Shown: one piece after another, positions 19,856 to 62,077 of the stretch | How the letters are laid out: every line of letters starts with the position of its first letter | Position numbering within the stretch: position 1 is the stretch's first letter | Assembly: GCF_030684315.1 (NCBI RefSeq) | Contig: NC_081396.1 | Location: forward strand, 4,712,001-4,776,000 | From: Stegostoma tigrinum | Taxonomy: Eukaryota | Reading direction: 5' to 3' | DNA length: 64,000 bases | Notes under the pieces: generated by a model | Databases searched by the model: none | What the model was told of the DNA's origin: nothing | The model's input: only the letters and a program-made list of their open reading frames with translations | Made by a program: the position numbers and the translations under genes

Positions 19856-20399
19856 TAATTCTAGTTTCGTCTTACATTTCATTTCTGCACCACATTTCTC
19901 ACTTTTTGAATACTTGGTTGAAATTTGAAAAAAAAATACATTCGCTCCATGTCCCAAAATTTGGTCATCACTGACCATTTTGGAATGCTTCCGACGTGCA
20001 TAAATAATTATGGTTTATCTTTCTAAAGAAGCTTCAATACAAATGATGGGCTTTTCAGTCAAGTTACGTCCGTTAAATCAACAGGCGGCTTATTGTGGAA
20101 CAGTTTGGGCATGCCAGGTATAAAGGGCAGACCTCCTCCTCTGAAGGAAAAGACTGAATCATGTAGGTGCTTCAAATCTTCAGAATGCCTTTGATTATTA
20201 GTAATTAGGATCGCATTCCATTTTGGATTATTTAAGTAATTGAAGCTACAATGGCATAATATGATTCTGGGACTTTACTTGAAACTTTTTGAATCCTTAC
20301 CAAGCATTCACTATGCCTCCTTCTGCACAGTATGGAATGTTTTGGTAGATTAAAGGAAATATAATGAGGTTGACTTCTAGAACACGGGTGTCGTTATTT

Positions 20400-24855: not shown

Positions 24856-24859
24856 TTCT

Positions 24860-26720
24860 GGGAGTGGAGGGTTTATGGAATGGGGTGAATAGGCTGATGT
24901 TTCTTAGACATTGATCATAGACGTTTGAGAAATGGTCTGATGGAAGCTTTGTTTTTAACTCATGACAGCTATAGATAAAGTGAATAGCAGGAAATTTTCC
25001 CCTGTGGTAAGGGTGTTTCTTAACAAGTGGTATAGTTTTAATGTGAGAGGAGAAAGACCGAGGAATGGCAGGATTGATTTTATTATATCTAGATTGTTTC
25101 ATTCGTGGAATGAAGTTCCCGAAGAAGTTGTCGATATGAGCACATTTACTGCATTCAGAAATAGCACTTGGAGAAACGGGAGTAATAAAGGTTTGGAGGG
25201 ATAAGGCTCAAATACAGGCACGGGTGGCTGGTTCAGTTTGCGATTATGGTCGGCATCGATTAGTTGGCCATCGAGTTTCTCTCCTTGGTGTATGACAATG
25301 GAATTCTGTCAGTGTCGGTTGGGGTTGAATTTATAAAATGTGAACTGATGCATTTTAGTCAGACACGGAAGGTTAGCGTTCATATATATAATGGAAGAGC
25401 CCTCATGAGTGTTGTGAAACAAAGAGACCTGGAGTGCAGGCGCACAGTTCCTTTAAGGTGGAGTCACAGTTAGAGAGGGTCGTGAAGAAGACATTTTGTT
25501 CATTTGGCTTCGTTGGTCATAACTCCAAATGTTGGAGTTGGGATGTTATTTTGCCTCTTTATGTGATATTCGTGAGGCGACTTTTAGAATACTGTGCACA
25601 ATTCTAGTCGCCTATTGATCAGAAGGATCTTATTAAACTTGAGAAGGTGAAGAAAATATTTGTAAGGATGATGCCAGAATTGGAGTGTTCTCGTTATAGC
25701 CAGGGGCTGAATAGACTGGGGTTTTCTTTCCCCTGCACCACTGGAGGCTGAGGTGACCTTATTGAGCAGCAATACCATGAGGAGCACTGACAGACTGAAT
25801 AACCCAGAACATTTTCCAGGGATGGGCGAAATACAAAACTACACAATATGCAATTAAGACAAAAGGGGAAATGATTAAAAATGAGCTGAGAATGTAATTT
25901 CTTTTCGTGAGGTGGGGGTTGTGTTTTTGGAAAAGGGTACCAGAGGAAGTTTTGGAAGCATTTACAATTACAATATGTAAAATGCTTCTGGATTGGTACA
26001 TCACTGGGAAGAGTTTACAGAAACTGGCCATGTGCTGCAAATGTAAGTCGGCCAAATTGGCATGTCTGATTGGCCCAGATGAGTCTGAATGAACGGTTTT
26101 GTTTTCTTCAAGTCTGATCCTGTGAATCTACAAGTTTTCTTTTTTAAAAAAACGTTACAAACACGAGTCACACATAAACTGAAATACTGTGAATTGTTCC
26201 AAGCCTCGTATCGAAGGGAAGGTACACTGAAAATCGAGACGATCTTTACGAGGTTCAGTACAGTGATCCTGAGGATGGAGGGTATGTCTTGTGAGTGGAT
26301 ATGTATATCTTTGACCTGCCATCATTGGAATACAGTACATTGAATAGTCACATTTTGAAGCAGGCGTTGTTTTTCGGGTATTTGATAGTTTAAATGCTGA
26401 AGAGATTCCACATGGGGCAGATACCACGAGCAAAATTTATATCCTGTGAACTGAAGATCAAAATTTTCAGGCAGAAGAGAAATTCTTCTCACAGAATGCA
26501 GTGAACATGTCGAATTCTTTGCCACATAAAATGTTCGAGATTGGTTCCAGAAGTATTTTCATGGGAGCAGTGGAGAGATTTTGTTTTAATTTCGAAAGAA
26601 TCAATGCTCCTGAGAATAAGATTGACAAATGGAATTGAGGGTTATCAATTCGACTATTATGTCATTGAATGGAAGAAGGATTTCAATCGGCAGAGTGCTC
26701 CCTTCAATTTCCTGATCTTT
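24860..26720 (+). mobile_element. Three consecutive decayed CR1 3'-end fragments (duplicate of 12950-14580)
   Basis: Fragments FIISRLFHSWNEVPEEVV, KCELMHF..KQRDL and FWKRVPEEVLEA. Same order as at 12950-14580. Confidence 0.6.
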
Positions 26721-27219
26721 TTGACATTAATGTTGACGTCTGCTTTAAATTACTGACTTCATACTTATTGCAAGCCACGTTAATGCTTCCCCTCAATTGC
26801 ATGTTTTCCAAGAACAGCACAGGCACTTCAATTTCTCCTCCTCGTTAACAAAAAAGGCAAGTCATCACACCATTATTCATAGATCTCCCCTTCAAAACAG
26901 ATTAAAACGACATTTCACCCACTGTACCAAACACACCATTGTCATGGTAACTGTGGAATTTGCACGCGTAACCCTGATCACATATTTTCTACCTCTACAC
27001 ACACAACATAAATCTGGATCTCAACATTTCAATGCAGGAATTCGTTCCCATTTTATTCTGGAATTAGTAACTTCTTAATTACAAAAGTAATAGTGGGAGA
27101 TAAAGACCCCTTGCACGATTGAATCGGACACTTAGAGACGTTTCAAAGGTCACACTATTTTCAGAATAAATCTCCCACGACATTATTCTAACCAAAACAA
27201 TATTGTCAAATGCAGAGAT

Positions 27220-27440
27220 AGTTGGAAGTACAGATGCTGGAGTGTCTAAGATCACAAGATGTAGAGCTGGATCAACATCGCATGCCAAGCAACATCAAAG
27301 GAGCAGGAAAGCTCACATTTCGTCCGTAGACCCGTCCTCAGAAAATTTATAAGGGTCTAGGCCGGAATCATTAGCGTTGCTTTTCCTGTGATGCTCCTTG
27401 GCCTGCTGTGTTTATCCAGCTCTACACCTCGTCATGTCAA
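27220..27440. mobile_element. Short palindromic Penelope-derived element
   Basis: TGTAGAGCTGGAT...GCCAAG (27260-27289) is inverted as CTTGGC...ATCCAGCTCTACA (27397-27426). Decayed hammerhead motifs face each other around ~27345. Confidence 0.62.
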
Positions 27441-27916
27441 ATACAGCAGGTTGAAGATGCTGAAGTGGTCTGCATTCAAGTTTCCCTGAAAATGTTCGCA
27501 CTTTCAGCACATGTACAATGTCGAAGCAGAGAAAATCTCCCTCGTCACTTTCATCCACAAGACTCCATAAGCTGTGCATTAAAGATTAATCATACACTCA
27601 ATGTGCATTGCACGGTGTAATCAAACTTCTTCAGCCATGAGCACTACTGGTGACATACAATGAATATCCCATTGAAAACAATAGCAGTAAATCCTCACAG
27701 CGATGATACAAGACAATGTTCATGCTGTTTAAAGATTCTTCCATCAGTTCCCGTCAAGCGCTTCTCGATCACTGAATACTTAAAAATAAATTTTCAAGAA
27801 AACTTTACTCTCCGGGTTCAGGTGCCTCTAGAAAGAAACACATTCGTTGGACAAAAGGAGATGTTATTCAGACGTTGGCCTCAAGTGATGGAGGAAAAGT
27901 TTTTCCGATGGATGGA

Positions 27917-28142
27917 NNNNNNNNNNNNNNNNNNNNNNNNNNNNNNNNNNNNNNNNNNNNNNNNNNNNNNNNNNNNNNNNNNNNNNNNNNNNNNNNNNNN
28001 NNNNNNNNNNNNNNNNNNNNNNNNNNNNNNNNNNNNNNNNNNNNNNNNNNNNNNNNNNNNNNNNNNNNNNNNNNNNNNNNNNNNNNNNNNNNNNNNNNNN
28101 NNNNNNNNNNNNNNNNNNNNNNNNNNNNNNNNNNNNNNNNNN
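27917..28142. other. Assembly gap
   Basis: Run of N. Confidence 1.
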
Positions 28143-29969
28143 CTGTGTCAATGTACCTCAGAAGTATGTTTTCTATTCATAATAACTGAAATCACTCTGG
28201 TTCTGTAAATTTAAAACTTCACATTTAAAAAGGCCTCACATCAATGACAATTGGAATCCATTCAGTCATTTATATTTTTGGCGCGAATTTCTACTGTGTC
28301 TGTGGGCGAAAATAAATTGCATTTTTGCTGTTCTATAATCTATTCTGAGACATCTATTTCTGTGCTTATTTGCATCAATGCTCAGTTGGTTTCAAAGGAG
28401 AGTTGATGGTGACAAAGCCAGATGGCCGAAGTTATTTATTGATTCGTTTCAAATCAAAACAAGTTTATTTTTAGAATGTTAACAGTTCGCAGAAATGAAT
28501 ACCAATATTCTGAAAATCACATGCAACAGAGGTTACTTATTTCCAACATATACTCAAAAATTTAATGTTTAAATTTGGTTATGAATTAGTTCATGGAAAT
28601 TCTGCAGTCACTGTAAATGACACATTTCTCTACAACTAGATGAAGTCAAAACGTCTAATTGTTTTATATGTTAACCCATTTTGATCAACTCAGCTCAAAA
28701 TGCATTTTTGCATTTTCAAAAAAAAAACTTGAAACGGACATCAGGAACTGCCACAGCAATTTAAGTTAATTGTTATAGTTTCGTGAGTTTTAGTCACACT
28801 TATATCTTATTTTGTTCATTCATGGAATGTCGATGTTACTGGCTCGGGCAGCAATGAGTCACTGTCCCAAGTCGCCCATTCAGTAGGTAGCCAGTGCTAC
28901 TCCAGAAGGCAGTCAATTACAATACATTGCGTAGGGAGTCCCATGAAGTTCAGACAAAGGAGAGCACACAGATTTCCTTTCCGAATGGACATGAACAAAC
29001 CCTTGCTTTTGGATTTTCGATTGATTCTCGTCACACTGTCATTATGAGACTTGCTTTTTCCATTCCAGGTTTTATTTGAATTCAGATTTCACTCACAACA
29101 AAAAGCGGGATTCAATATCCGGTCAATTAAGCATCACGCTGGATTTTAGAATTATTGGGTCAGTGAAGTTACCACAGCGCTCTTGATTGCAAAAATGTCG
29201 TTGACATGCACAGAAAGCTGCCACAAACATAAGAGAAATAAATCTGACATTTTAAGTCTGAAGTAAATAATGGAATGGAACACATCATAAAATTCTTTCG
29301 TGTTTACACGATCACAGCTTACGTTGCATTCAATAATCGACCTAAAAACTATTTATGATTCTCTCTCTGCAGAACCTGAACTACCAACAGCGTGTTTCCA
29401 ACGTTCCTATTCTGAATTTATTTCAAATTTCTATTCTCCAGCAAACTTCGCACTTTATGAATTCTTGCCTGAAATATGAACATGTTAATCACATATCACA
29501 AGAATGTGGTCATCGCTGACCGTTTTGCGATGCTGCTGTCTGGCAAGGTTAATATTGACAGATCGTTCTGCAGATGTTTTAATACAAATGATTGTCTTGA
29601 TGTTCAGGTTCAGGATTCTAAAGGAACAGCCACGGTATTGTGGAACAAGTAGGCCAGGCCAGGTCGAAAGGACGGAATATCTCTTCTGAAGGCGAGTACA
29701 GAACCATATGGGCTTTCCCAAATCTTTGGTAAGTATGTGATTATCGCTGATTCAGCGAATATTTTTGTTTCAATTCCATGAACGAATTGAAGCTACCATG
29801 GCAGAAATTGAAATCCCACCTCTGGGAATTAAAATAAGCTTTTGAATGCCAATCAAATGCTCACAATGCCTCCTTAATCACGTGATCAAACTGTCAAGTT
29901 AGCTTCAAGGATCTTTTATGAAGTTGACTGGTTGAATACAGGGTTCATTATTTCCTGTCACTCGTTTCA

Positions 29970-32900
29970 CTAAAACAGATGTTGCAGTGCTGCCTGTCCG
30001 AAATGCAGGTCCAAAATGTCCCTCAGGAAGGGAAATTCAGGTTTTTTTTATTCAGTCACTGTGATGAATCAGTGGTGAACTTCCAAGCCAGGATGGTGAG
30101 TGACACGGAGGGTAGCTTTCAGTTTTTGCTTTGCTGGGTATCTGGTGCTCTTATCCTTCGAGAAGGAAGTGATAGTGGGTTAGGAAGATGCTGTCTCAGG
30201 ATATTGATAAATATCTTGTATCAGCTGCTTACACAAGCTGCTCAGTGCCAGCTTTGGAGAAACTGGATGCTCGTGGATGTACTGCCATTCAAATGAGCTG
30301 CTTTGTTCTGGTTGATGGCAAGCTTCTTGATTGCAACTGACGCAACACCCATTCAGGCACTTGGGAAGGCATGCCATTCCACTCACGGGTTTTGCCTTTT
30401 CGATGATGTATGGCTAAGGGAAGATACAAAGGTGGGCTACTGATCACAGTAACCCTGAGTACTTGTCTGTTCTTGTCACCACTACGTTTGTACGTTGTTT
30501 CCATTTCAGTTTCAATTGGATAAGAAACTCCAGAGTGTTGAGTTTGGAAAATTCAGTGACAGTAGCACCATTCAATGTCAAGTGGCTGTGGTTAGATTGT
30601 CTCTAATTGTCAATATTCATTGTCTACCAGTTTTGAGGTCTGAATGCTCCTTGTCAATTGTCAGTCCACGTCTGAATATTGTACAGATCTTGTATTAAAA
30701 TGGAGATTTCCACTATATCTGCAGAGTTGTGAAAGATGGTGAGTATTCTGCCATCATCAATGGTGCCCATTTCACATCTCATCTAATGGTAGAGGGGAGA
30801 TTATTAATTAAGTAGCTGAAGATAATTGGACCAGTGAAGCTACTGGAGATAATTGGGCCAATGAAACTGCCTTCACAACCTCTGATGGAGATGTGCTGGA
30901 GCTGAGACGAATTACCTCCAGCAACGGTATCAGTCTCCCTTTGTGCAAGTTGTGTCTCAAGGTAGCAGACAGTTTATCACCTGCCATGCATTGATTTCAG
31001 AGTTCCCAAAGAACAATCGATACCACACTCATTTGAATGGGACTTTGATGAGAAATGATATCACTCTCCCCTCTATTGTGAAGTTCAGTTTTTGGCCATC
31101 GTTGAACTAAGGCTGGTATTCAGTCAGGAGTTGACTGGCCCTTGAATAACCCACACATTGCGTCACTGAGCCAGAACTGCTTTCTCGCAATATCAATGGC
31201 AACTCAAACATCTTACTGATGGCTAAGAGTAACATGATAGGCAGTAATCAGCTGAGCTGGATTATTTTACTGTCTGGCCAATTTTCCACATTGTCCAGTT
31301 GGTACAAGTGTTGTAGGTTAATTGGAAGTGCTTGGCGAGTAAAGTGGCAGATCTGAGCTCATGTTATCAGTATTGGTGACAGAATTTTGTCATGTCCTAT
31401 AACGTTTGCATAATCCAACACCTCCAATCGAATGTTAAGATCCTTGGAGAGAATCTAGTTGGCTGAAGACTGGTATCTAAAATGTTGCTAACCACCGGAG
31501 GAAGCCAAGATGGATCATCCATTTGGCACCTCCAGCTGATAATTGATGTTATTTCTTCAACTTTGACGTTTTCACAGATATATTCGGCTCTTGCATCTTG
31601 AGGATGGGAATATCTGCGGGGATTACTCCCCAAATGACATATTTATATTCCTTCTCAAGCCATGACTTGATGTGACACTACAGAACTGGTCTTGTCTGAT
31701 TTGTTCACTATCAGTTCGCTTAGCTCTGTCTATCGCGTGCCATTTATGCTGTTTGGCATGACAATAGCCTCTTTGTGGCAGATTCACCACGTTGAATCCT
31801 CTTTTCCTGTGATGTTCCTGGGTTGGCATCCTGCACTTTCCATTAATTCAGCAGTGGTCCCTTCTCATGGTTGTAATGTTTGGAGAGAGAATATGCAGAA
31901 CCATGAGCTTGGGACATTGAGCAGGAAAATATTTCTCACTATTTTGGTTGCAAATCACCTGATTAATGGCAGATTTTGAGTTACTTTATCTCAGCCATTA
32001 AGCGTACTCTCAGTGTCAAACAACACAATGGACAGTGTTCTTAATGTGAAGCTGAGGCTTCGTCTCCACAACATTTGACGGGTTGGTCACTGTCATTGAT
32101 GTTGTCATTTACAGATGCATCTGTCGCCGGACTATTGGTTAGGATGAATTCAACTGCATAATATTCCATCTTGTTGCTTCCCTCAGCAGGCACTATAGAC
32201 CCACCCTAACAGGTATGTCCTTCAGGACCCGACCAACTCGATCAGTAGTGTTTCTATGCCCAGTGGTAGACATAGAAATCCCCTCCAGAAGTACGTTTTT
32301 ATCCTTTCCACCTTCAGTGCTTACTTCAAATTTTGTTCAGCATTGACCTGTACTTAATCATCAGCCGAGGAAAGGTGGTACATAATAATTAAAAGGTGTT
32401 TTCCTTTCCCGTGTTTAACGTGAATCCATCAGACTTCATGGGTCCAGAAAGAATATTGACGGCTATGAAAGTAAGTTCCTGCCCTCTGTCTATCACAGTG
32501 TTGCCACCTGTGGAGGATAAGCCCTGCTGAAGGAACATGGTGTATTCAGGTGCAGTGATGTTTGCGTTATTTTCGTTTAACCATGAATATATGACCAGGC
32601 TGTTGCTTGACCAATCTCTGAGAATGCTTTCCCAGGTTTGGCACTAGCTGCTCGATATTTTTAAACGGTTTTTTGCAAGCTTGACCAACCATGTTGCGCC
32701 AACATCTCCTCCGGAACCTTGGTCAATGTCAGATTGCCCATCTACTTTCACTGTATTTTTGCTATTTTTCAGCAATTGGAAAAACTGAGTGGCCTTCGAA
32801 GCCGTTTGAGAGTCAACCACTTTGCTTTGTGGCTGGAGTGACATTTGCCTCAGACGACATGAGTCTGGCCATCTTCCTTCCCTAAATGATATTTCGGATG
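29970..32900 (-). mobile_element. Old L2/CR1-clade LINE remnant (duplicate of 20400-22900)
   Basis: Colinear nucleotide similarity with 20400-22900 and 34780-36130. Confidence 0.6.
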
Positions 32901-44011: not shown

Positions 44012-45449
44012 TCAAAATGACAATGTGCTGTCGCAATCCTCCAGTGAATTCATATTTCCATAGTGTCTGAAACTCTGCAAATGCTTCCTTTCACGATAAA
44101 GGTACACAACTGAAAAATAAACCTGAATCTAACAATGTTGCGAGGCATATTTGTTGATGCACGGGTGATGGTTTTGTTTTGAAGCCAAGCGGTCAACAGC
44201 GAGGAGAAGCATTTTTGATTTACTGCTGACACTATCAATGTTTCCGGTACATGAACATTTGAAGTCCAGGATATTTTCTGCAATTGGCTTGATTGCTGTC
44301 GGACATTGTGCCTCACAGATTAAAGGCATATGAATCAATTAAAATGGAGCTTCACCAAAGTCACTTTTTTATTTCTTTTCCAATTGCAGGCAAAGGATAT
44401 ACATCACTTGACATGTCTTCCTTGAAAGACTTCACCGAGTTCAGCGCTGACTGTGTGACTTTGAAAAAGACTGGAAATTTACTTTGCACCAGTTATTTCT
44501 AATACTTCCAAATAAAAGTCATTCTCGTTCGTTGTTTATAAACTAATTTGCTGTCATGGACTATTTCAAAGCTCAAGAACGTGAAGCCAACTGATCCACA
44601 TTTGCATTGCAGGGGCATTTGTGATCACCTCAAACTAAATTTACAAAATTTAATTTGTTTGAACTCGCATGGATTGTTGCCACATTCTCTTATCATTTAA
44701 ACTGTGTGAGCAATTTATATATGGCTGGCGCTGATTTCGTGTCATGCTTAATTTCTGCCGGTGTCTCTTTTTTGACAGTGCCTGTCAGAGCTACCAAGGA
44801 ACGGAAGAATGATCAGTTTATGACCTGCGTCAGTGGCAATCATTAGAATACTCTCGAACTGACCATACACTCATGATGTACCTGCACAGTTACCTACAAT
44901 TATTTGGTTGCTGGGGCAATTTTGTGTTTTTATTTAGCTTGTCGACTGACCTGTTCTGATTCATTAGATTCTCTTTCAAAAGCTGATTTGAATGTTGCTT
45001 TTAACTGTCAATTCGCTGTTTATTTATTAGTCATGCAGTTTTCCATTATTGTGTATTTCCAAATGATTATGTTGAGGCAAACCAATTTGAAAAATATTAA
45101 ATGAGAGACGTTGTTTAAATTAACAATCTTTTTCTCATCCTTGAGTTCAGAAACTTGGAGTGTCTGTAAAAAGCAATTTTATTGGCTGATAATGTTATTG
45201 AATATTTTACTCGATTTCTCTGTTTGTCAATGAAGTTCAAGAAATAAAGTGAGTTCATTTCGAATTGGGAATTTTACTGTCTTAAGTAAAATAATGAAAA
45301 CTGTCATCTGATCAATACCTCACGCTGCTTAACTGCACATTCGCCATTAAAAATATGCGAATACGTCTCATCAATCTGTACAACAAAACAAATAACACAA
45401 GACAGAAAAATGTCCATGTTAAGAGTAACCTTTCATAAATTTATTAGCC

Positions 45450-45643: not shown

Positions 45644-45692
45644 ATGGTGACGACGACAATTTTTCTGAATTTGTTACTGACCTTCTTATCCT
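45644..45692 (+). CDS. IGHV: IgM heavy-chain leader exon (MVTTTIFLNLLLTFLS + phase-1 T)
   Basis: ATG in strong Kozak context (AGAATGG), hydrophobic signal peptide typical of shark IgM leaders, donor GTAAGT at 45693. A 127-bp intron splices in frame to the V exon (T|GT = Cys, giving ...FLSCVQS). Confidence 0.93.
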
Positions 45693-45819: not shown

Positions 45820-46124
45820 GTGTCCAGTCGGAGGTTACATTGGTTCAACCACAGGCAGAGACTGTCCGTCCTGGAGGCGCCATAAGACTGTCCTGTAAAA
45901 CCAGCGGATTCGATCTTGGCAGCTCTGGCATGAGTTGGATCCGACAGGTGCCTGGCAAGGGGCTGGAGTGGATCGTTTACTACTATAGTTCATCGTACAG
46001 TAATTATGCGCCAGCGATTAGAGACCGATTTACTGCGTCCAAAGATATTTCAAAAAACATCTTCGCGTTGGAAATGATGAGCCTGAGGATCGAAGACACT
46101 GCCATCTATTACTGTGCAAGAGAC
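45820..46124 (+). CDS. IGHV: IgM VH gene segment exon, germline and unrearranged
   Basis: Acceptor AG at 45818-45819 after a T-rich tract. Open frame (C)[101 protein letters not shown] with canonical Cys, WIRQ, GLEW and DTAIYYCAR. Followed immediately by an RSS. Confidence 0.97.
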
Positions 46125-46163
46125 CACAAAGCGAGAAACAGCGGCTGGACAACTACAAAAACA
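46125..46163 (+). other. VH 3' recombination signal sequence (23-bp spacer)
   Basis: Heptamer CACAAAG 46125-46131, 23-nt spacer, nonamer ACAAAAACA 46155-46163. Confidence 0.9.
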
Positions 46164-46538: not shown

Positions 46539-46552
46539 ATACTACAGTGGGT
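46539..46552 (+). CDS. IGHD: IgH diversity segment D1 (ATACTACAGTGGGT)
   Basis: 14 nt between two perfect heptamers, 414 bp after VH. Resembles shark D1 (TACTACAGTGGGT core). Open in all three frames (ILQW, YYSG, TTVG). Confidence 0.93.
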
Positions 46553-46918: not shown

Positions 46919-46946
46919 AGTATTTGATACAATGTTTCTCAACGTG
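46919..46946 (-). other. D2 5' RSS (12-bp spacer)
   Basis: Nonamer-like AGTATTTGA 46919-46927, 12-nt spacer, heptamer CAACGTG 46940-46946 (reads CACGTTG from the coding end). Confidence 0.75.
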
Positions 46947-46959
46947 ACATACTGGGATG
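46947..46959 (+). CDS. IGHD: IgH diversity segment D2 (ACATACTGGGATG)
   Basis: 13 nt flanked by two 12-RSSs, 394 bp after D1 and 392 bp before JH. Open in all frames (TYWD, HTGM, ILG). Confidence 0.87.
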
Positions 46960-46987: not shown

Positions 46988-47312
46988 CGTCCAGCTCTAA
47001 TTGTCCGAAACTAAGTTAGTGCTTACGATCACAAAACTTCTAAACGCGCTGTGCAGTATTATTTGTGTTGCGTATTACTCACTTATCACGATTTAATTTG
47101 TAATAACGAAATAATTATTGATAACCAGTTGGTGGTTTTGACAATCAGTTAATGTATTATTCTGTGAAGTGTAAATCATTAGAATCATTTGTGACGAATG
47201 AGCAGAATGCACTTGCACAATCTCAACAGACTGAAAATTAGCCTTGATTTTATTTTACCTCTGGTTGGGAATATTAAAATAATGACAGCTTTTATTTGTT
47301 TTGTGCAGAGCC

Positions 47313-47351
47313 GTTTATTGCGTGACCCCGTCCAGGGAATGTAACATTGTG
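47313..47351 (-). other. JH 5' RSS (23-bp spacer)
   Basis: Nonamer-like GTTTATTGC 47313-47321, 23-nt spacer, heptamer CATTGTG 47345-47351. Confidence 0.8.
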
Positions 47352-47399
47352 TCTACTTTGCTGACTGGGGACAAGGAACCATGGTGACCGTGAATTTAG
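47352..47399 (+). CDS. IGHJ: IgH joining segment JH (YFADWGQGTMVTVNL + phase-1 G)
   Basis: Canonical WGQGT motif. Donor GTAAGA at 47400. Phase matches the Cmu1 acceptor (G|TG = Val). Confidence 0.96.
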
Positions 47400-48970
47400 G
47401 TAAGAAATTTGAATGTTCTCAGCAACCGGTATATTTGTTTTACTGACTTAAGTAATTCATGAGTTAAATGAAACTCGGATTCTGGGATGTGTTTAGTTTG
47501 GTTCCAATTGACTTTTCTGCAAAGTGATGATAAGCTACATTTAAGTCTCAGCAAATAAATAAAGTGCTGGTGAGGGATTCAGTTACTCAGGGTTTCTCTC
47601 ATTTTCATTAAACAGTGAAACTGTCTCTTCAATTCTATGACGTTGAGACAATGTTTAATGCCATTGACGCCCAATATCTTCGAGATAGTATCCACAACAG
47701 ACGTTCAGAATTTGAAGATGTTAAAATATTCCCAAGCATGAACAAAATGTGCTAAAATATTATTAACAATTTCTTGATAATATTCCACGTGCAAAATTCT
47801 GATCTTGTCGTGGCTGCATTTTGTGGTGTAGTATGTTATTTTAGTTGATGACAAGTACGTTCATATCTGTATTGAATTTTCCTTGCCGTGCCCCAGTTCA
47901 CTCTGTTGATTTCAGTTGAGCAGTTTGATTAACACAAAGGATTTTCCATCATTTCAATCGATTGATTCAAACTGTTTGGATTCTGAGTTTGTTTTACTTG
48001 ACACTGTTGAATTTTTTTGCTTTCATTCTGAATTTGTTTCATTTGATTTTGTTGAATTCAGTTGATTGAATTCTGTTTCTCTGTTGAGGAGACTGTCCAT
48101 ATGCATTACTTTTAATTATTAATATTGTTTGAAGTTCTTTGCTTTCACTGCATCGTTTCTGCACTTGCTGAACTCAATTGGCGACATTCAGCTTACTGAT
48201 TGATTTAAAACATTATATCCGTTTGCAATTGTCTGAATAACTGACTTAATGCAGAAACACAAAAGATTTGAGGATTAAAACAAAAATGCAGCATTTTCGT
48301 GCATTGTTTTGATTTAAAGTCAATTGTAGTAATAAAGTAAGTTAAGTCTGATCTTACCATCCTCAATCAAAATACAATTTGGTTCCAACATCTCAAAATG
48401 CCGAAATGATTAGCCTTCATGACTGATTGTAAAGTTATTATTAGTACAATTATAACGCGGTAATAGGTGGACATTGACCTAATTTTGTTTCTAACTGAAA
48501 GTGATTAATCAATGTATGCATCTGATCGGTCTACTGTAAAGTGCTCGCAATTGGCATGAACGGGAAGGAAATACAGATTGGAATAAATTGAATGTCTGCT
48601 AAAAGCGTGCTCAAATTTGTATCTTGTTAAGTTAGTCAACTTTCAATTAAGCCTGCTGTTTTGACTTCTCATTTCAATATAATTTACTAATTAGCGTGTT
48701 TGATGGTGCGCAGCTTTCATGGATTCTAGTTTGAGATTTCATTCACGATGTTACAGTTCTGATGAAAATGCGTGCAGAGTCAATTCAGCTGCAAACACAT
48801 TCCTGTCCCTCACTGTTGTGATTTGGTGATTTCTGCTCTCTTGAGAAGATAATTCGTCCGGGGGTATCAAAGTTCTGACATTTGTGAAGCGGTTTCTGGT
48901 CTCGACAACGTTTTACCATTGTTTACATGATTGGTGACAGTAAAACGGTCGAGTTTTCTCATTGAATGCA

Positions 48971-49320
48971 AACAAAATGCAAGTTTGCTCGCTGAGTGAA
49001 AAGGATGGTTTTCAGACGTTTCATCACCATTCTAGGTAACATCATCAGTGAGCCTCCGACGGGCTTCGTCGAAGGCTCACTGATGATGTTACCTAGAATG
49101 GTGACGAAACGTCTGAAGGCTTCGTCGGAGGCTCACTGATGATGTTACCTATAATGGTGACGAAACTTCTGAAGGCTTCATCGGAGGCTCACTGATGATG
49201 TTACCTAGAATGGTGACAAAACGTCTGAAAACTAAGCTTCCAGCTCAGCGAGCAAACTCACATCCCGAACCTCAACCTGAGCTACAAATCTTCTCAAAAC
49301 TCGCCAACAAAATGCGAGTT
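48971..49320. mobile_element. Penelope-derived fold-back (pLTR) element with three tandem 56-bp units and 15-bp target-site duplication
   Basis: Direct repeats AACAAAATGC(A/G)AGTT at 48971-48985 and 49306-49320. Left arm 48982-49060 is an inverted copy of the right part. 56-bp units start at 49062, 49118 and 49174. Confidence 0.82.
49062..49241 (+). ncRNA. Tandem minimal type I hammerhead ribozyme motifs (three copies)
   Basis: Each unit reads CTGATGA-T-GTTACC-loop-GGTGAC-GAAAC-GTC (core, stem II, core, cleavage triplet). CTGATGA at 49080, 49136 and 49192. Copy 1 intact, copy 2 has GAAAC-TTC, copy 3 has AAAAC-GTC. Activity untested. Confidence 0.72.
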
Positions 49321-50870
49321 GAAGTTTCCTGAGGCCTATTATTAGGAGAAAGGCAGACGGCAATGGTTTGGAAACTGAGGAGAAACAGATAACCTAAGGA
49401 ACAATGATTACTTTGATGTCAGTGTGGCTGATTAAATATAAACGATGACTTGCAATCAACTCTTTCGATCACAGGATCTTTCATTATATAATTCAAAAGT
49501 CACCGAGGAATACGAATCGAATTTCAAAATTTTAATGTTCCAATCTTGGTTGTGAGCAACAAAAACCGTAACGGTGATCAAGAATCAGCTCCCCACTCCG
49601 TCATGTATTCCAAACATATTTTCTGGATCGGAAAGTTAATTGGCAAAGGATAATTAGCAATTCTTCTGAAATACTGAGATGAAGAACAGACCTATTTCAA
49701 TGCTTTGAACAGTTTTACAAATAACTGATATTATTTAATCGTTATATCCCTGATTCAACAAGATTTGTAGGAATAAAAACAAAACTTTAACTGAGTGATT
49801 TCATCTGCACAGCTGTCTACTTTTTCCGAATCCATGTAGTTAAAATGTACCCAGTTGTAACTTACAACGTCATGTCAACTCAAGGGTCACTCATTCAGAT
49901 TCAACTGATGTCGTGGATTATATGACCAAGGCTAGAGTTTGTATTAATTACACTTATCCAAGCATGAACGCATCATGTGAAAGCTTGAGCAAATGCATAA
50001 AATGCCTTGTATATCAATGTGTTGAGACATGTGCAGAGTTTACTATTTTCCGGAAGCAATAAGTACAGAGTGTGAGAACACATTGCTTATTTCAAACAGT
50101 AAAATTGAACGTTATTTCCTTCAATTAATGTACTAGAGAAATTGTTGCAACTTAGCCATCTGAAGGATATTGTTCGCATTAGTTGAATGCAATTATCATT
50201 TATTTAGAGAGCAGGTAAAGTGGGCAACTCCCAGCAGAAACACCTTTTAAATTCATACATTTTTTTTAAAAAAACGTATCCTTCACTGAAAAGCAGCTCA
50301 TCAGACAATTAACTCGGCATTGCGAAACGAACCTAACAGCAAATATTTTTTCTTCGTTTTTCAACAGAAATTGTTTTCCACAATATAACGCAATTTGTTT
50401 CTGTGCAGTGTGTGCAAAATCTCCAAATTTAAAGAACTGTGTCAAGAAAATACGAAATTAATTTCGATAATTAATCATTTCCTCTTGACTTTTGCTTAAA
50501 TTAGTCAAATGTCCCGTCTCAATAATTTGGTTTATCATAATGTCTTATGAAATGTATTGAAGGAGTAGGTAATCTCTATTCAATGTGAAAGCATTCCCTT
50601 TCCTGTTAATACTTATCTGCGGACCAGTTTCTTTTAACAAAGTTAAATTAGAGTTAATCTGTAATATTTGACATGGATTAAATAGATTTATTAACGAGGT
50701 TCAAAACTGTTGGATGGTTTGTGCATGTGCTATTTCTGACCAACTTGATAAGTGGCCTTAACCTTTGTCAATCTTCTGGTTTGGTCTCCAGTAACTGAAG
50801 CAATTCGTTTTCATCTGGTGCTTCAAAACTTCTTTTATCTGCCATTAATATCATATTTACTTGGCCCCTC

Positions 50871-51237
50871 GGAAATGAAAACCCTGACCAAATCACTAAA
50901 ATTAGAGCGAACAATACAGAAATGAAAGACAGACTGCAGGTGTTTTGAAATCGTTTGTTAGAAATAATATAACTGCCTTTTGAGTTACCTTTAACTGAGC
51001 GAGGCAGTTGAAATGGCATGTGATTTATTTCATTCCTCCCTCAGTTTTCTGTTCCCTGTTTGGGGGCACAATGTAGAATCAGCATTCATTGTGCATCTTA
51101 TTATTGGAGTACATATCATTGGCTGTTCATGTTACTGGTAAAGGTTAAATTAGGCTTCAAAGGATTTTACTGCATTTGCATTCGAGCAGATCATTTGATG
51201 CAAAAACGCAAATTATTCTATTGGAAAGGGACTTCCC
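50871..51237. promoter_or_regulatory. Candidate J-C intronic (E-mu-like) enhancer
   Basis: GGAAATGAAA (EICE) 50871-50880, CTGCAGGTGTT (muE5) 50934-50944, AAATGGC/CATGTG (YY1/muE3-type) 51011-51022, ATTTGCAT octamer 51174-51181, GGGACTTCCC kB site 51228-51237. Motif evidence only. Confidence 0.5.
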
Positions 51238-51287
51238 CAGGTTTGAAATCTAATAAAACTGATTTTATAGCAATGGAATTGTTAGTG

Positions 51288-51615
51288 TTAGATTAGATTC
51301 CCTACAGATTCCCTACAGTGTGGAAACAGGCCCTTTGGCCCAACAAGTCCACACCGCCCCTTGAAGAATCCCACCCAGACCCATCCCCCTATAACCCACA
51401 CACCCCTGAACACTATGGGCAATTTAGCATGGCCAATCCACCTAGCCTGCACATCTTTGGACTGTGGGAGGAAACCGGAGCACCCGGAGGAAACCCACGC
51501 AGACACGGGGAGAATGTACAAACTCCACACAGGCAGTCGCCCGAGGCTGGAATTGAACCCGGGTCCCTGGCGCTGTGAGGCTGCAGTGCTAACCACTGAG
51601 CCACCGTGCCGCCCC
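51288..51615 (-). mobile_element. Near-intact tRNA-derived SINE (HE1/V-SINE type) with CR1-derived tail
   Basis: Minus strand starts GGGGCGGCACGGTGGCTCAGTGGTTAGC (A box) ... GGGTTCAATTCC (B box). V-domain TCTGCGTGGGTTTCCTCCGGGTGCTCCGGTTTCCTCCCACAGTCCAAAGA. Tail GGCCTGTTTCCACACTGTAGGGAATCT..AATCTAATCT. Confidence 0.9.
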
Positions 51616-53667
51616 ATATGTTATTCCATAGTAGCTCCTCAACAGTTTGTCTGATTCAAGAGGACTATCAAAGTGCATTTAATTAATTTGTGAAATATTA
51701 TTTCTACCGTGAAATGACTCTACAACTATTCGTGGTTGCTGAAAGGTGTTAATAGTTAACATGGTTTGTGTACTGTCAAACAGTTGGTCTGTATTGTCCT
51801 CGTTAGTGTCGAGCTGATGGTATTCTGCTGCCTTGTGGTGTGGAGGTGGTGTCCCTGAGTTTGAGATATGTGGCCCGTGTTCAATTCCAAACTGTTGCAG
51901 TGGTACATAATGCCATCTAAATAACAATTTAAATTGGAAATTAAAAACACTTCGATTTCTTTGAGTGTTGACGGAATTCCAAAAACAGATGCCTGCTTCA
52001 ATCGCTGACTTACACAGTAGATGGAATTTGGGTGGGGAGGGGGAATGGGGGTGATAGTTTTATATTAAATAAAAACAATGTTTGGCCATGGGATTTGAGC
52101 GTCACGAGTGGGGTTAATTCAGTTCTGCCCCACAGAAATACCAGCTTCCGGCTTGCTCTTCTATCAACAGCATTAGTAAGAATCCCACTGTTAATGGTCT
52201 CAAAGAATACTTGAGGTGATAATATTGAGCTTATCTTAATTTTATTCAATCGAGCATTCTATCTGAACAGGAGAGTTAGATTGTTCAGGAGGATAAGGTT
52301 TCCACTGTATCCATCACTTGCAGCGAATAGTCGCAGATATTCAGTTAATCTTCAGATTATGCCTCAGTTCGTCCAGTACCTTTCCTTCGAACACTTTTTT
52401 TACAGCAGAAACCATGTTAACACATTCAGAGTCGAACCCAGTCGGTGTGAGTTCCCATGCCAGGAAAAAATGAAAACGTTTTGCTGAAGCAAGGTGTACT
52501 GGGCTCGAAAGTGTATCTTTTTGTTCTCTCTTTAGGAGCTGCGGGAACTGCTGAGTTTCATCAGCAATTTGCTATCTTCATTTTGTTTCAGATGTCGAGC
52601 ATTTTTGTTTCTTTTTCAAGAAAAAATTCTCTGTTGTCAGTGAAACGGTGTAAGTTGTTCACAGAGAAAATATGACAATAAACTAAGCATTTTCAGTGAT
52701 ATTTCATATCTGATAATCATTGAATTTAAGTAACCTAATCGGGAACCGTAGTTTCAGAAGAAATATTGTCAAAAAATAGCAGAGGTTGGCGGCTGCTATA
52801 ATTGTGCAGAAGTTATTTTGACCACTTAAATGGGGAATGTCGATGCTTCTATTCCAAATAATCAACGAGAATTTTTTTTTAACAAAATGTTTTCAAGCAT
52901 TGTTTTGCTGAATATTTTTCGCAAAGATTCTGACTGCCAGTGACAACCTGACATTTGGCACAATGATAGGAGGATAGTGACAGACGTAGGGCAAACAAAC
53001 TCTCAAACACGTCCACTATTTAATCAAATCTTGTTGGACTTGTGTCCAAACTCCATGTGCCTGCATTTTGCCAAAAAAATTAACATTTGATCATCAAAGA
53101 AAATCCATCCAAAACTTATTGATTAGATTGCATTTAACAAAGTGTCGCGCCATTTCTGAATGACATTTCTCTGATTATTTAATTTTCCATAATGAGGCTC
53201 TGTTGAATTGCTTATGAGAAGAAACTTTAAATTTCTGACAATTTCCGATTTTAACATCACAGTCAAGTTCGTCAGAATATTTTAATTAAACATTGTATTT
53301 ATATATTACTGGCAAGAGTACTGTATGGTTACAAGGCCAGAAATGAGGAAACATTCATTCCCATTAAAGAATGAAGAAACTATTCTGTTCCTTCAGTAAA
53401 AACATGGTGAAACCACACAGAAGGAAACCGACTAGCGTGTCATCCTTGAATGGGCGTTCAACAAGTCCCTCAAATTCGTTTCAGTCCTGACAATGGGTAT
53501 TTCTGTCTCTCGAGAGATGGGCAAGTGTCAGAACTCTTACATCTCCTTGAGAAGTTTGAAGTCAACAGCCTACACAGAATTGCTACTCTTGATATGACAA
53601 CAGTCTGTCTGCAGCATTTTAGAAAGCGAGGTCAATAATTGTGATCCTGAAATAGGAAATGTCAGAG

Positions 53668-54114
53668 AAATAATTGCAAGCGAGTTATGAGAAGATTTGT
53701 AGTTCAGGTTGAGGTCCTGGATGTAAGTTTGCTCGCTGAGCTAGAAGTTTCGTTTTCAGACGTTTCGTCACCATTCTAGGCAACATCATCAGTGAGCCTC
53801 CGGTGAAGCACTGGTGTTATGTCCCGCATTCTATTTCTGTGTTGAAGTTTCGTTGGTTTGGTGATGTGATGTCCGGTGTTGATGTCATTTCCTGTGTTGG
53901 TAAAGAACAGGAAATGACATCACCAACACAGGAGATGGCACCAACACAGGAAATTACGTCACCAACTCAAGGAAGCCGAAACACACAAATAGAAAGTGGG
54001 ACATCACACCAGCGCTTCACTGGAGCCTCAGTGATGTGACCAAGAATGGTGACGAATCATCTGAAACCGAAACTTCCAGCACAGCAAGCAAATTTACATA
54101 CAAATATTTGCAAG
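53668..54114. mobile_element. Second Penelope-derived inverted-repeat element (same family as 48971-49320)
   Basis: Arms inverted about ~53900. Minus-strand hammerhead motif 53759-53792, decayed plus-strand copy ~54025-54065. Internal ACAGGAAATGACATCACCAAC-type repeats. Flanking direct repeats AAATA(A/T)TTGCAAG at 53668-53680 and 54102-54114. Confidence 0.78.
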
Positions 54115-54369
54115 TTAAATCAAGTGTGATTTCGAACTAAACTTTCAAGTAAGCACTTGCTTGCTCGTGCGCTCTTGTCCTCAACATTTGCAGCTTTGAG
54201 ACGTGCTGCCAAAAGAATATGTGGAGATACTAATTAGAAGTCGATGAAGGTCTCTTAGATACTTTAGAATTCCAATCATTTCATAAGACTATGATACTTC
54301 TTGTGCTCCACAGTCCTTCTAACGCCCCATAAAATTTAAAGTAGCTGTTTACCATACGAATATAGTATG

Positions 54370-55430
54370 GTGAACCTCTGGAGTTTTCTGCCACAGAAAG
54401 TGTTTGAGGCAAAAAAAATGAAATACTTTCAAGAACGAACTTTTTTTTCAGAGATGAAAGAAACAGTGGGTCTCAGCTCAAATATGAACAGAGCATAATG
54501 TTCAATAACGAAACTTGAAAACATTGAATGATGTGGAAGCTTGGAATGACAGCAAAATTAGGCGTCAGGTCGGGCGTGAAAAGTTCTCTAAAAGCTCAAC
54601 AGGATTATGATTAGCAGGATCAATAAGCAGAAGAATGACAGGCAGAGATTACCTTAAATGAATGCGTGGTGTCGTATTTTGGACATGAATAACACAGTTA
54701 ATGGTTGGGTACTGAGGAGTGCAGTCGAAAACCGGGAGCGAAGAGTTCAGGTACATCGTTCCTTTGAAGTGTTGCTACCAATGGACTGCTGATGAAGGCG
54801 CTTTGCACGCTTGTATTGATTGATCAGAGCATTGACTGTCAGACTCGATGCGTCAAGTTCCTGCTTTACCCGACATTCGTGAGGCCACGTTTAGAGGACT
54901 GCATTTCGGTCTTGTCACCGTGCTGCACGAAAATTCTTGGTAATTGAGAAAAAGTGCAGAAATGTTTTGCCAAATGTTACTTGAGGTTTTGAGAGATGGG
55001 ATGAGGTTGTTCACGCTGGATGTTTCTTTTAATCCATTGATTTTAGAAAAATAATTTGTGAGTCGAGAGACGTTTGTATCATCACCGGAGAAGCAGATAA
55101 TCAGAATAACAAAGGTTTCCTATTCTCCTATTTCAAAGGAGATCAAAATTACATGCCTTTGCTTTAAGTTGGAAAAGGAAGTTTTAAAAGGGACCTGTGG
55201 GAAACCTTTTTCAAGCAGAGGCTGGTACGTATATGAATGAACTGGTAGAGGAAATGGTAGATACAGGTTCAGTTACAACTTTGAAAAAAAAACATTTCAA
55301 CAATACATGCACCAAATGCAGGCGAATGGAATACCTTTAATTTGTGAATGCTGTCGGCATGCGTGATTTGGACTGAAGGGTCGGTTGTTATACTGTATAA
55401 CTCGATAATTCTCTGACTCAGTTATAGAAC
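54370..55430 (+). mobile_element. Decayed CR1 3' fragments in the J-C intron
   Basis: GTGAGGCCACGTTTAGAGGACTGCATT (VRPHLE motif), followed by C-terminal and 3'UTR signatures. Confidence 0.6.
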
Positions 55431-57862
55431 AGGCTCGACATTCGAAACTGATGAGTCAGTGAAGGGATAGAGTGTGAGCTGGTCGGCTTTGATGTGTTGA
55501 GTTGCTACTGCATGAGCTGGCACGCAAATAGCTTGGCAGTTCAGAATCCAGGCAAACGACTATGATTATGAGGAAACGGTTTCACTGAGACGTGCTAGTA
55601 AGTGAGTGTGTCAATTTACTGGAAAACTAGTCACTGTTTAAGGTGCCAAGCTAGTTTGTTGACAGACCAGCAGTATGTGGGATTGTTTGGATGATAGATG
55701 ATGACAATAATGAAATGGTAGGAGGTCATCATGCACAATGTGAAGCTCGCAGTTTGTCAAAGTGTCAGGCGGTAAACAACGGATGAGAAGAGAGGTGGGA
55801 TGGAATGTTCGCGGCTAAGATTGGAGTTAAATTTTCGAGGTTTTGAGATCATGCATAAAGAAGTTGTGTCCTCACTTCGGTGAAAGGTACCTGACAGGGG
55901 CAGATACAAATGGACCATGTGCAGAGTGGCAGAAGGGGAATTAAGGAATCGTGTGTACATGTCCAGCTGGAATAACGATTATCTTGGAATGCGTGGTGTT
56001 GCGTGGAAAGGATTTCATGCATGGCAGAGCGAGTGGATTTGTGACAGTATGGGGGTTATCAGTGCCAGGGGAGGTTCAAGACAGAGTGAGAGAGAGTGGT
56101 GATCTGACTGAGAAATTCAGAGCTTTGCAGTGAATTGAGTGTCAATTGAATCATTCCTTGCGAAATGTTTCACAGTAAACCATAGTTCACCAAAGACTCT
56201 GATCATGAATGGAGGAACACATGTTTTCAGAGGCCTCCAGAATTCAGATAATTGCCCATGATCACTTTGAACTTCTATTCAATTGGCATGAGGTCAACTT
56301 TGACACATATTCTCAGAATTCGCATGCTCCGCTCCTCTTGGCGCTGCTGCAGCAACGTTCTTCTGTGATAAAAATATTCTGACTTGCATTGACAGTAGAA
56401 AGAGAGTTTCCCAACGCACTTGTGCCAAGGATATTCACTCTCCCAGAAGAGTGACTTTTAATATTTCTCTTCATAATGTTATTGTCACTGCTGAATCCTG
56501 CATCGTCAAAATACTAAGGGCTGTCATTTTAAAAAAAGACATGAATTCCCATGCAGAAGCTTTGGCGAAAAGAGCAAAATATGTGCTAGACATTTTCAGC
56601 AAGTCATTTTTCTGCTGTCTACAAATGCCTGCACACCATCGACAAGACACTGGACAGTAATGAGTCGGAATAATGTCTACTCCTGTGGATGAGTGGAACT
56701 TGAATAGTGTTTAATAAACGTGCAACATTCAGAACAATGGAATGCACTTGTTTGCAAGCCCATTTATCATGTGCAATATTCACTTCTTTTCTTCAAATGC
56801 AGTGGGACCGTTGTGGGATATCTACGAGCTAGACTGTAGAAAATCAGCTAGTTTCCTTCCCTTGCAGATTTTGATCCCACCACCTATAACACCGTGAGGA
56901 ATGGGGCAGCAAATGAAAGACATCACAACCAACTGTAACTCATTCTCTCCGTGTAACAATATTGGGGCTTCTTCACAACTGTTAGGCCAAATATTCTACC
57001 ACTCCCGTCCAAGGAATACCATGAGTACCTGCTTTGTAAGGTCTATAATGGTGGAAGAAAGCAACTGCCCTGCACATCCCCATGGATAAAAAGAAACATG
57101 CAAAGAATGTGACTGGAGACAGCAATGCCGACATCACATGCACAAAACTAATCAAACAATATAAGGGCCAAATATTTTCTTTTACAAACTCGGCAGTTGT
57201 CTGTCCTTCACTGCTTGTCTGGTGTTGCACTTTGAAGTCTCTACCATGAGGGCATATACTGCCAACACAATATTCTCTATCTATTCCACTTGGTGTTCAA
57301 ACTGGAAGAACGTTAAATTATCAGTCAAGATTCTGTGGCATGGCAGCATCAAACAACAGAAAGAGCGCGGCATCACTGATTTACTTCCTTAATCCAAGAC
57401 ACTTAATGGAGTCAGGAGTCATTGTTGATCGCTGCCTTGCAACTCTACCCCAACTGGCTGGCAATGCCCTGCCACTTCAGATGGATATGTCTGGCAGATG
57501 GAATGGGTTTTTTTTAAATGGTAAAACAGATCAAAGTTGTTGGCTTGCAAACACCTAATTTCCTTGCAGACAAATCACTTTTCTGTAATGTTAGACAGGA
57601 ATTAGTTGGAATGGGTTCACTGTGAGTCACACAACACAGGAAATGATAAAAGTTGCTTCAAAGTCTTACGTCATCAGGTTTTTATGATTGTTTCATTGTG
57701 ATCCTGTAGTGGGGATTACCCAGTCACTTGTCAAGTTTCGTCAATTTAAAGATCTTTGGGCGCATGGGGAAACTGATGTCGTATGAGAGGCAGTGCTCAA
57801 TTTTAACAAAATGCTCACACAAGCACAGTCATAGAAAGGACAAGACAATTTAACTTTCACAG

Positions 57863-58049
57863 NNNNNNNNNNNNNNNNNNNNNNNNNNNNNNNNNNNNNN
57901 NNNNNNNNNNNNNNNNNNNNNNNNNNNNNNNNNNNNNNNNNNNNNNNNNNNNNNNNNNNNNNNNNNNNNNNNNNNNNNNNNNNNNNNNNNNNNNNNNNNN
58001 NNNNNNNNNNNNNNNNNNNNNNNNNNNNNNNNNNNNNNNNNNNNNNNNN
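57863..58049. other. Assembly gap in the J-C intron
   Basis: Run of N. Confidence 1.
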
Positions 58050-58175
58050 CTGAGGAAGGATCACCGAACCAGAAAATTTAAGAACTCTCTCCTTGGATGT
58101 TGCCAGAGCTGCTGAGTTTTTCCAGAAATTTCTCTTTTGGTTTCTCATTTGCAGCACTTGTTGTATTTTAGGTTT
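58050..58175 (+). mobile_element. Decayed short Penelope/hammerhead-family element abutting an assembly gap
   Basis: CTGAGGAAGGATCACCGAACCAGAAA...GATGTTGCCAGAGCTGCTGAGTTTTTCCAG matches the 19.1 kb family. Similar decayed copies at ~2524-2650, ~29330-29460 and ~52484-52610. Confidence 0.55.
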
Positions 58176-58379
58176 TATTCAATTGAACTCCTCCTCTATT
58201 CAGTTGTAGTCCCAACTGAAATATCAAACTTGTTCTTGAGAAATTATTTTAAAACTGAATGGTGATGGGATTCAAGTGTTTTTATTCCTTCGTTAAAACA
58301 GATAAGACGTGCTCCTGGAGAGCAAAGTAACAGATCATGACCAACAAATGACATAAAGCAAAACTAAGCTGAATTTATG

Positions 58380-58690
58380 CTGCTCAAGAGAACCAGTCTC
58401 CCTTTCATCCTTGGGCGTCTGTCTGTGCTGATTTTGCACATTCTCCCCATGTCTGCGTGTGTTTCTGCCGGGTGTTCCCGTTTCCATCCACAGTCCAAAG
58501 TGTCCAGGTTAGCTGGAACGGCCATTCAATATTCCTCAAAGTGCAAAGGGGTATGTATGTTCGGTGGCTTAGTCATGAGAAATTCAGTGTTAGTGGGGAG
58601 GTGACTGGTTCTAGTTGTGCTGCTGTTCGGAGCGGCAGTGCGGGCGTGCTGCACTGAATGATCTGTTTGCACACTGCAAGGATCCTATGA
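58380..58690 (+). mobile_element. Decayed HE1/V-SINE just upstream of Cmu1
   Basis: TTTGCACATTCTCCCCATGTCTGCGTGTGTTTC...CCACAGTCCAAAG V-domain. Tail ends ~40 bp before the Cmu1 acceptor. Confidence 0.72.
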
Positions 58691-58732
58691 ATTAACAGAG
58701 TCTAACTTGCTTAATCCGACATTCTTTCCCAG

Positions 58733-59029
58733 TGACTCCATCTTCCCCGACGCTTTATGGTCTAGTCTCCTGTCGTGAACACAGCACTGATAACTCTGTG
58801 ATTTTTGGTTGTTTGGCGATGGACTATTCCCCCGACGTCACTACTGTGACCTGGAAGAAAGATGGGACGCAGATCACGACTGGATTTAAGACATACCCAT
58901 CGGTGAGAAACAAGAAGGGAACTTATACCCTGAGCAGCCAGTTAGCACTGACTGGTGCAGACGCGCATTGTGGAAAAGTCTACTGTGAGGTTCGACACAG
59001 TGGGTCCGACAAGAGCACTGAAATACAAT
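58733..59029 (+). CDS. IGHM: IgM constant domain 1 exon (Cmu1)
   Basis: Acceptor ttctttcccAG ending 58732. 297-nt phase 1-1 exon: (V)TPSSPTLYGLVSC...VIFGCLAMDYSPD...TWKK...TYPSVRNKKGTYTLSSQLAL...YCEVRHSGSDKSTEIQ. C1-set motifs characteristic of shark mu CH1. Donor GTAAGT at 59030. Confidence 0.96.
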
Positions 59030-61762: not shown

Positions 61763-62077
61763 GTCCAAACGGTGGTGTCCCTCCGAGTGTTCTCCTTACT
61801 GTGAGTTCCAGTGAAGAAATCGAGAGCAGGAAAGTTGCAACCTTAGTCTGCTCAATCTTTCACTTCAATAAAAAGGATATCTCCGTGGTTTGGTTGAAGA
61901 ATGGAAGAGTGGTAAATTCTGGTGTCTTTACTTCTCCTGCGTGTGAAGCGAACGGAAACTTCTCAACGACCAGTCAGCTGAGAGTGTCTTCTCGTGAATG
62001 GTTCGACAGAGCAGTCTACACATGCCAGGTCGAACATGAAGGGCACAGTCAAAGTCACAACATCACCGGACCTCAGG
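61763..62077 (+). CDS. IGHM: IgM constant domain 2 exon (Cmu2)
   Basis: Acceptor tgttttcttaAG ending 61762. 315-nt phase 1-1 exon: (C)PNGGVPPSVLLTVSSSEEIESRKVATLVCSI...VWLKNG...NGNFSTTSQLRV...EWFDRAVYTCQVEH...NITGPQ. Donor GTAAGA at 62078. N-glycosylation sequons NFS and NIT. Confidence 0.95.

Follow-up and report, generated by a model that had tools for sequence, protein, structure and literature searches.

A candidate B-cell intronic enhancer between JH and Cmu1 of a shark IgM minilocus

The heavy-chain enhancer E-mu is flanked by AT-rich matrix attachment regions, and an Ets-IRF composite, an octamer and a kB site occurring together represent inputs of the B-lineage type. The E-mu sites set out in PMC3972084 are muE1, muE5, muE2, muA, muE3, muB, IRF, muE4 and the octamer (YY1, E-boxes, Ets1, PU.1, IRF and octamer sites). 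According to the same source, E-box, NF-kB, MEF2 and PU.1-IRF4 sites are needed for Ig enhancer and DIVAC activity and define the lambda enhancers together with their ability to target hypermutation, and the duck enhancer between J-mu and C-mu has only multiple E-boxes in common with the mammalian E-mu (PMC3972084), indicating that a position can be shared without conservation of sequence. In catfish, the core of the enhancer E-mu-3', located 3' of the mu gene, consists of two variant octamers and a muE5 site (PMC1800861). For sharks, we found no description of an IgH enhancer in the literature searched, including the available text of PMC2435157, PMC9936319, PMC7555362, PMC8423624, PMC5192425, PMC12227049 and PMC3441446; older papers on horn shark and nurse shark may mention motifs in the J-C intron. 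The octamer is absent from shark IgH promoters (PMC2435157), OCA-B orthologues have been reported in sharks (PMC13043367), and the rare formation of a promoter-enhancer complex has been proposed as the reason why only one or a few of the 15-200 shark IgH miniloci are expressed per B cell (PMC2435157).

The DNA analysed here, a single stretch of 64 kb that we call the window, contains a single intact IgM minilocus, encoded on the plus strand; its frames are open and its splice sites canonical (Table 1), and no further Ig exons were found within the 64 kb. Among 16 hits from 87 candidates, its Cmu1 exon comes nearest to mu chains of the nurse shark (78% and 76%) and to Chiloscyllium sequences (75-76%), which makes a carpet-shark relationship likely. 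The intron between J and Cmu measures 11,333 bp. A preliminary description of the window had proposed, as a candidate E-mu, a dense cluster of B-cell enhancer motifs about 3.5 kb downstream of JH, and the block in question (50871-51237) indeed starts 3472 bp past the end of JH (47399) and ends 7496 bp before Cmu1, with the VH promoter 5227 bp upstream of it. From its motifs and its setting, we consider the block, delimited more broadly as 50853-51280, to be a candidate for, and probably to be, the B-cell intronic enhancer of this IgM gene.

Table 1. Features of the IgM minilocus and of the motif block in the J-Cmu intron (positions within the window)
Feature	Position	Strand	Remarks
VH leader exon	45644-45692	+	open frame
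V exon	45820-46124	+	open frame; promoter before the leader is the likely target
D1	46539-46552	+	recombination signals on flanks
D2	46947-46959	+	recombination signals on flanks
JH, single	47352-47399	+	splice donor at 47400; RNA contigs stop at donor and resume in Cmu1
AT-rich upstream flank	50250-50700		69.8% AT; top 0.1% of 451-bp windows
5' island of diverged copy, 247 bp	50853-51099		starts 18 bp before first motif; equal-depth joints in X1 and X4
Ets-IRF composite-type site GGAAATGAAA (GGAAnnGAAA)	50871-50880	+	string match; unique in 64 kb
MEF2-type site CTAAAATTAG	50896-50905	+	motif scan; other copies have C at 50903
Half copy GAAATGAAA of Ets-IRF site	50919		string match
E2A-type box CTGCAGGTGTT	50934-50944	+	string match; unique in 64 kb
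CAGTTG (51005), weak YY1-like AAATGGC (51011), CATGTG with muE3-like core (51017)	51005-51022	+	string matches
Second Ets-IRF composite-type site GGAACAGAAA	51046-51055	-	motif scan
Perfect octamer ATTTGCAT	51174-51181	+	string match
3' island of diverged copy, 97 bp	51184-51280		ends at edge of compared stretch; positions of variant octamers and kB site
Adjacent one-mismatch octamers ATGCAAAA (51198) and ACGCAAAT (51206)	51198-51213		second is ATTTGCGT on minus strand
kB-type site GGGACTTCCC	51228-51237	+	string match; unique in 64 kb
Cmu1 exon	58733-59029	+	open; 78% identity to nurse shark mu
Cmu2 exon	61763-62077	+	open; window ends in Cmu2

Splicing across the intron is represented in two of the sequencing runs compared below, X5 and X6, which contain contigs spliced from JH to Cmu1 though neither run is on record as RNA. 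One such contig of X5 exits JH at 47399 and continues with 29/29 letters of the Cmu1 of this window; X5 also matches 47370-47716 without a difference and therefore may not be independent of the assembly. Neither run has a contig over 49410-51280, a blank that is uninformative on enhancer RNA or a sterile transcript. A scan of metagenome contigs for related loci returned weak V matches in 2 of 494 candidates (49% over 41 residues), which we judged spurious, and among 105 candidates in genome contigs no related locus was found. Upstream of VH, there is no perfect octamer within 1 kb, the nearest one lying 1044 bp before the ATG. A GGAAnnGAAA-type site (44372, minus strand) and a perfect octamer (44600-44607) are both located 1.0-1.3 kb before the VH start codon, and the octamer at 44600 is to be set against the published octamer-less shark VH promoters. 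Two of the recombination heptamers depart from the consensus, CACAAAG after V (46125-46131) and CAACGTG before D2 (46940-46946), and both keep the three letters on the cleavage side.

Every motif string named in the preliminary description is present in the block, and two sites had escaped it, the second GGAAnnGAAA composite and the MEF2-type site (Table 1). Several of these strings are common in the window, with 43 matches to CAGTTG and 42 to CATGTG on both strands and 2.2 octamers per kb at one mismatch or fewer, so that they carry little weight singly. The proposed YY1 site is weak: AAATGGC fails the CCATNTT consensus and is off at 2/8 positions from AAGATGGC at muE1. The block had been described as apparently non-repetitive, and this agrees with what we find, since nothing beyond an 18-mer recurs elsewhere in the window. 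In two genomic runs, the contigs over the block are about as deep as those over plain intron and far less deep than those over the upstream mobile repeat, and no tandem repeats were found inside the block. There are no Rfam matches in 47000-59000, switch-like AGCT density is absent from the intron (0-5 per 500 bp), and CpG content indicates no CpG island.

If the block is a lymphoid element, its main job may be other than mu transcription in B cells, for instance an accessibility function shared with T cells or the promotion of a sterile transcript. Shark IgH genes are rearranged in thymocytes without transcription (PMC2435157) and the mammalian E-mu doubles as the promoter of the germline mu transcript (PMC3441446), both of which are consistent with such a role. 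However, the motif scan detected no RUNX-type site in the block, and the combination of Ets-IRF composite, octamer and kB site points to the B lineage; we regard this alternative as very improbable.

To place the block among the described enhancers, we consider position and sites separately. In position it agrees with E-mu, lying between the last JH and Cmu1 of an intact mu gene, and several details add to the likeness. Comparison by eye with Fig S4 of PMC3972084 shows 11 letters at the mouse muE5 site whose reverse complement is CTGCAGGTGTT, with the muE5-like box of the block inverted relative to mouse, and ATTTGCGT at 51206 is, again by eye, the human E-mu octamer variant of the same figure (PMC3972084). 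A CATGTG core and an octamer on the same strand are also features of E-mu (PMC3972084, PMC7555362), and the AT-rich upstream flank, which had been correctly noted at about 50250-50700, may be a further one. The E-box, CATGTG, Ets/IRF-type site and octamer, which are spaced here by 80, 29 and 128 bp, stand in the same order as in E-mu, a correspondence that was noticed post hoc. In its set of sites, by contrast, the block departs from E-mu: the muE1 consensus is absent, there is one E2A-type box only, and muE2 and muE4 have no clear equivalent, while the kB site and the GGAAnnGAAA composites are absent from the E-mu site list given in PMC3972084 and are typical of the kappa and lambda enhancers. 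The distance of 3.5 kb from JH is a further difference. Hence, the E-mu label given in the preliminary description stands for the position and not for membership, and the block should be classed apart from E-mu.

The lambda enhancers and DIVAC elements of chicken, mouse and human, as well as the kappa 3' and intron enhancers, offer a second comparison, and all four of their site classes (PMC3972084) lie within 370 bp here. The MEF2-type string CTAAAATTAG is, by eye, the 10-mer under the Mef2 label of mouse E-lambda 2-4 (Fig S4 of PMC3972084). The four classes are complete in this copy, but the MEF2 match is gone in all covering contigs of two genomic runs, which have C at 50903 (8/8 and 9/9). 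The block differs further from the lambda and DIVAC elements in its location in a heavy-chain intron, in its added octamers and in an order of sites unlike that of E-lambda. With the catfish E-mu-3' it has in common a muE5 site and two variant octamers (PMC1800861), although it lies 5' of Cmu1 and not 3' of the mu gene, and with the duck enhancer it shares a J-C position in a non-mammal (PMC3972084). Judged by its sites, the block resembles the light-chain/DIVAC enhancers plus an octamer more than E-mu proper, and any activity it has would be that of a generic Ig enhancer placed where E-mu lies.

The preliminary description took the co-clustering of the motifs, each of which may occur by chance, as the signal and suggested a comparison with shuffled intron. 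Five motif classes (EICE, E2A box, CAYGTG, octamer and kB) occur within 400 bp at a single place in the window, the block, and among 2000 dinucleotide shuffles of 47401-57862 none reached five classes and 18 reached four. Because this five-class set was picked after seeing the hits, we scored instead a wider set of 12 generic B-cell consensus motifs, giving more weight to those that are rare in the window. The block scored 15.6, followed by intervals at 10.7, 10.2 and 10.0; its earlier rating as the best candidate in the window is upheld, the top-scoring cluster being the one between J and C of this intact IgM gene. With hits placed at random (5000 draws), the intron gave P=0.0006 and the window 0.008; removal of the MEF2 hit raised these values to 0.017 and 0.10. 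Scrambled motif sets scored as high on the real sequence in 2/1000 cases for the intron and 6/1000 for the window, and in 8/1000 and 84/1000, respectively, without MEF2. These results indicate that motifs for B-cell transcription factors are truly clustered in the block beyond chance when the search is confined beforehand to the intron, and only modestly so across the whole window.

Other copies of the gene provide a comparative view of the block. Contigs from four of ten runs from one organism (X1, X4, X5 and X6) were compared on 47250-51280 at 80% likeness, with X2, X3, X10 and the bisulfite runs X7-X9 left out, the latter because little coverage was expected and their tissue is unstated; about 0.6 of the words are present in four of the ten runs. 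None of the ten is labelled as a chromatin library, and seven have no library label. X1 and X4 are genome-sized, with approximately 2 to 9 contigs per non-repeat position among those listed, and the comparison of copies rests on 40 of 914 substitution rows, 15 of 46 joints and 32 of 24,385 pieces. Four joints of equal depth (6.82 in X1 and 24.1 in X4), which we read as one contig, represent a diverged copy that is aligned, among the 15 of 46 joints listed, at 50195-50232, 50628-50672, 50853-51099 and 51184-51280. In this copy 344/428 bp of the block are aligned (80%), as against 83/779 bp upstream (11%). The 5' island, its longest among those listed, spans the positions of both Ets-IRF sites, the E2A box and CATGTG, in terms of the extent of alignment and not of letters. 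In simulations of uniform divergence such a contrast appeared in at most 4/1000 cases under strict scoring or 55/1000 under lenient scoring, figures that are rough, as the original aligner is unspecified and the block boundary was taken from the data.

A second copy, a paralogous cluster or an allele present in both X1 and X4, joins 48331 to 50639; between its deletion of 2307 bp and the first motif there are 232 bp, and the copy retains 50639-50740 and resumes at 50810. In a third copy, found in X4 only, 70 bp (50987-51056) that hold CAGTTG, CATGTG and the second Ets-IRF site are unaligned. Two of the motifs that had been counted in favour of the block are weakened: the perfect octamer at 51174 is outside the islands, in 84 bp that are unaligned in the diverged copy, and the muE3-like CATGTG falls in the unaligned part of the third. 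Of the AT-rich flank, the greater part has been lost by deletion from one copy and fails to align in a different one. At 51015, within the YY1-like string, the letter is A in 5/5 covering contigs from both genomic runs; since no contig covering 50903 or 51015 agrees with the window there, the YY1-like and MEF2 matches are private to this copy or allele. The core probably consists of two modules, a 5' module of Ets-IRF site and E2A box and a 3' module of variant octamers and kB site, with a middle that varies between copies.

Another copy is aligned along 49306-49987 and 50113-50906 at 80-84%, so that homology to plain intron upstream exists and is not confined to the block. Summed contig depth, which is no copy number, was higher in the four block bins than in 21 upstream intron bins for X1 (49.7 vs 33.0, p=0.004), with a weak and non-significant contrast for X4 (180 vs 164, p=0.10), after the J bin and four repeat bins had been dropped. 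Two further observations were rejected as support: the strong motifs are free of the 40 of 914 substitution rows listed, where by estimate fewer than one would be expected, and two diverged contigs seemingly end in the block, which may reflect words common to the copies and is too indirect.

These patterns bear on a second alternative, namely that the block is a chance cluster in an ordinary intron, with islands produced by uneven divergence, gene conversion or upstream indels and no selection. Such an origin is consistent with the window-wide P of 0.08-0.10 after the copy-specific MEF2 site is dropped, with the two motifs private to this copy and the two parts unaligned in other copies, with the 55/1000 obtained under one simulation setting, and with the alignment of the upstream intron in one copy. 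On the other hand, the top cluster of the 64 kb sits in the J-C intron (P 0.0006-0.017), the longest island listed begins 18 bp ahead of the first motif, and the 2.3-kb deletion stops before the block. Weighing both sides, we consider a chance cluster unlikely, though it deserves to be taken seriously.

If the block is an enhancer, as we think probable, its mode of action may be outlined; here we infer the binding events and all function from tetrapod and teleost Ig enhancers. PU.1/Spi-B together with IRF4/8 would bind the Ets-IRF site or sites, and E2A would bind the CAGGTG box; the octamers would be occupied by Oct-1/2 and OCA-B, and the kB site by NF-kB. Together these factors would then contact the octamer-less VH promoter 5.2 kb upstream, a distance of about 4 kb after V-D-D-J joining. 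In this way the enhancer would open the V-D-D-J segment to RAG and drive mu transcription, and it would probably help to target hypermutation as well. From its place 3' of JH, the block is retained through rearrangement, and each cluster that is copied carries it along.

The block may also be real and yet minor or redundant, with the main enhancer located 3' of Cmu, as in teleosts, or upstream, for example in a second motif cluster at 12-181. A subordinate element would fit with the catfish IgH locus, where a single enhancer is in use and lies 3' of the mu gene (PMC1800861), with the window reaching no farther than Cmu2, with the third rank by score in the window of the cluster at 12-181, and with the variation between copies in the middle of the block. 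Against this, the block scores 15.6 while the next window scores 10.7, and the promoter is 5 kb from the block but 45 kb from the cluster at 12-181; a minor role therefore seems improbable to us. The cluster itself is a dense B-cell-type grouping with a perfect octamer at 12, CAGCTG near 76, an Ets-IRF composite at 120-129 (minus strand), an Ets-like core near 134-143 (by eye) and an ISRE-type string GAAACTGAAA at 172. It lies 45.6 kb upstream of VH, is cut by the window edge, and gives no BLAST alignment with the J-C block.

Elements of this kind are well known, and it is the location in a shark that would be new. A candidate of 430 bp with two separable modules and with natural variants (a deletion, a missing middle and single-letter losses of motifs) makes the promoter-enhancer model of shark IgH expression testable. 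The candidate would also supply a data point from cartilaginous fish on which enhancer position, J-C or 3', is the older. The preliminary description went further in suggesting that the J-C position is ancestral; this does not follow from one candidate element, and we treat it as a guess, albeit a reasonable one on grounds of parsimony. A broader scenario can be put forward as a doubtful conjecture: an ancestral jawed-vertebrate IgH enhancer would be present in each shark minilocus, its Ets-IRF/E2A/octamer/kB grammar would later have been split into E-mu, kappa and lambda, the teleost 3' position would be derived, and competition between the many copies for limiting B-cell factors would physically underlie heavy-chain exclusion in sharks.

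Repeats and older duplications surround the locus. A very high-copy element bounded by inverted ends is found twice in the intron, at 48977-49304 and 53680-54102, the first occurrence having three 56-bp tandem units, and another copy of the gene is without the mobile repeat near 49000-49300. A dispersed repeat, which opens with two units of 11 bp, begins at about 51290, roughly 50 bp past the kB site, and related copies are found near 19600, 34200 and 58500. Farther upstream, 8-10 kb of non-coding DNA were duplicated long ago, and the two collinear stretches, 12706-22811 and 24621-32377, now show 64-73% identity; a single 40-bp island near 18805 reaches at least 87%. Decayed fragments of LINE-type reverse transcriptase, recognised by eye from open frames, lie on the minus strand at 16225-18072 and at 6553-7886.
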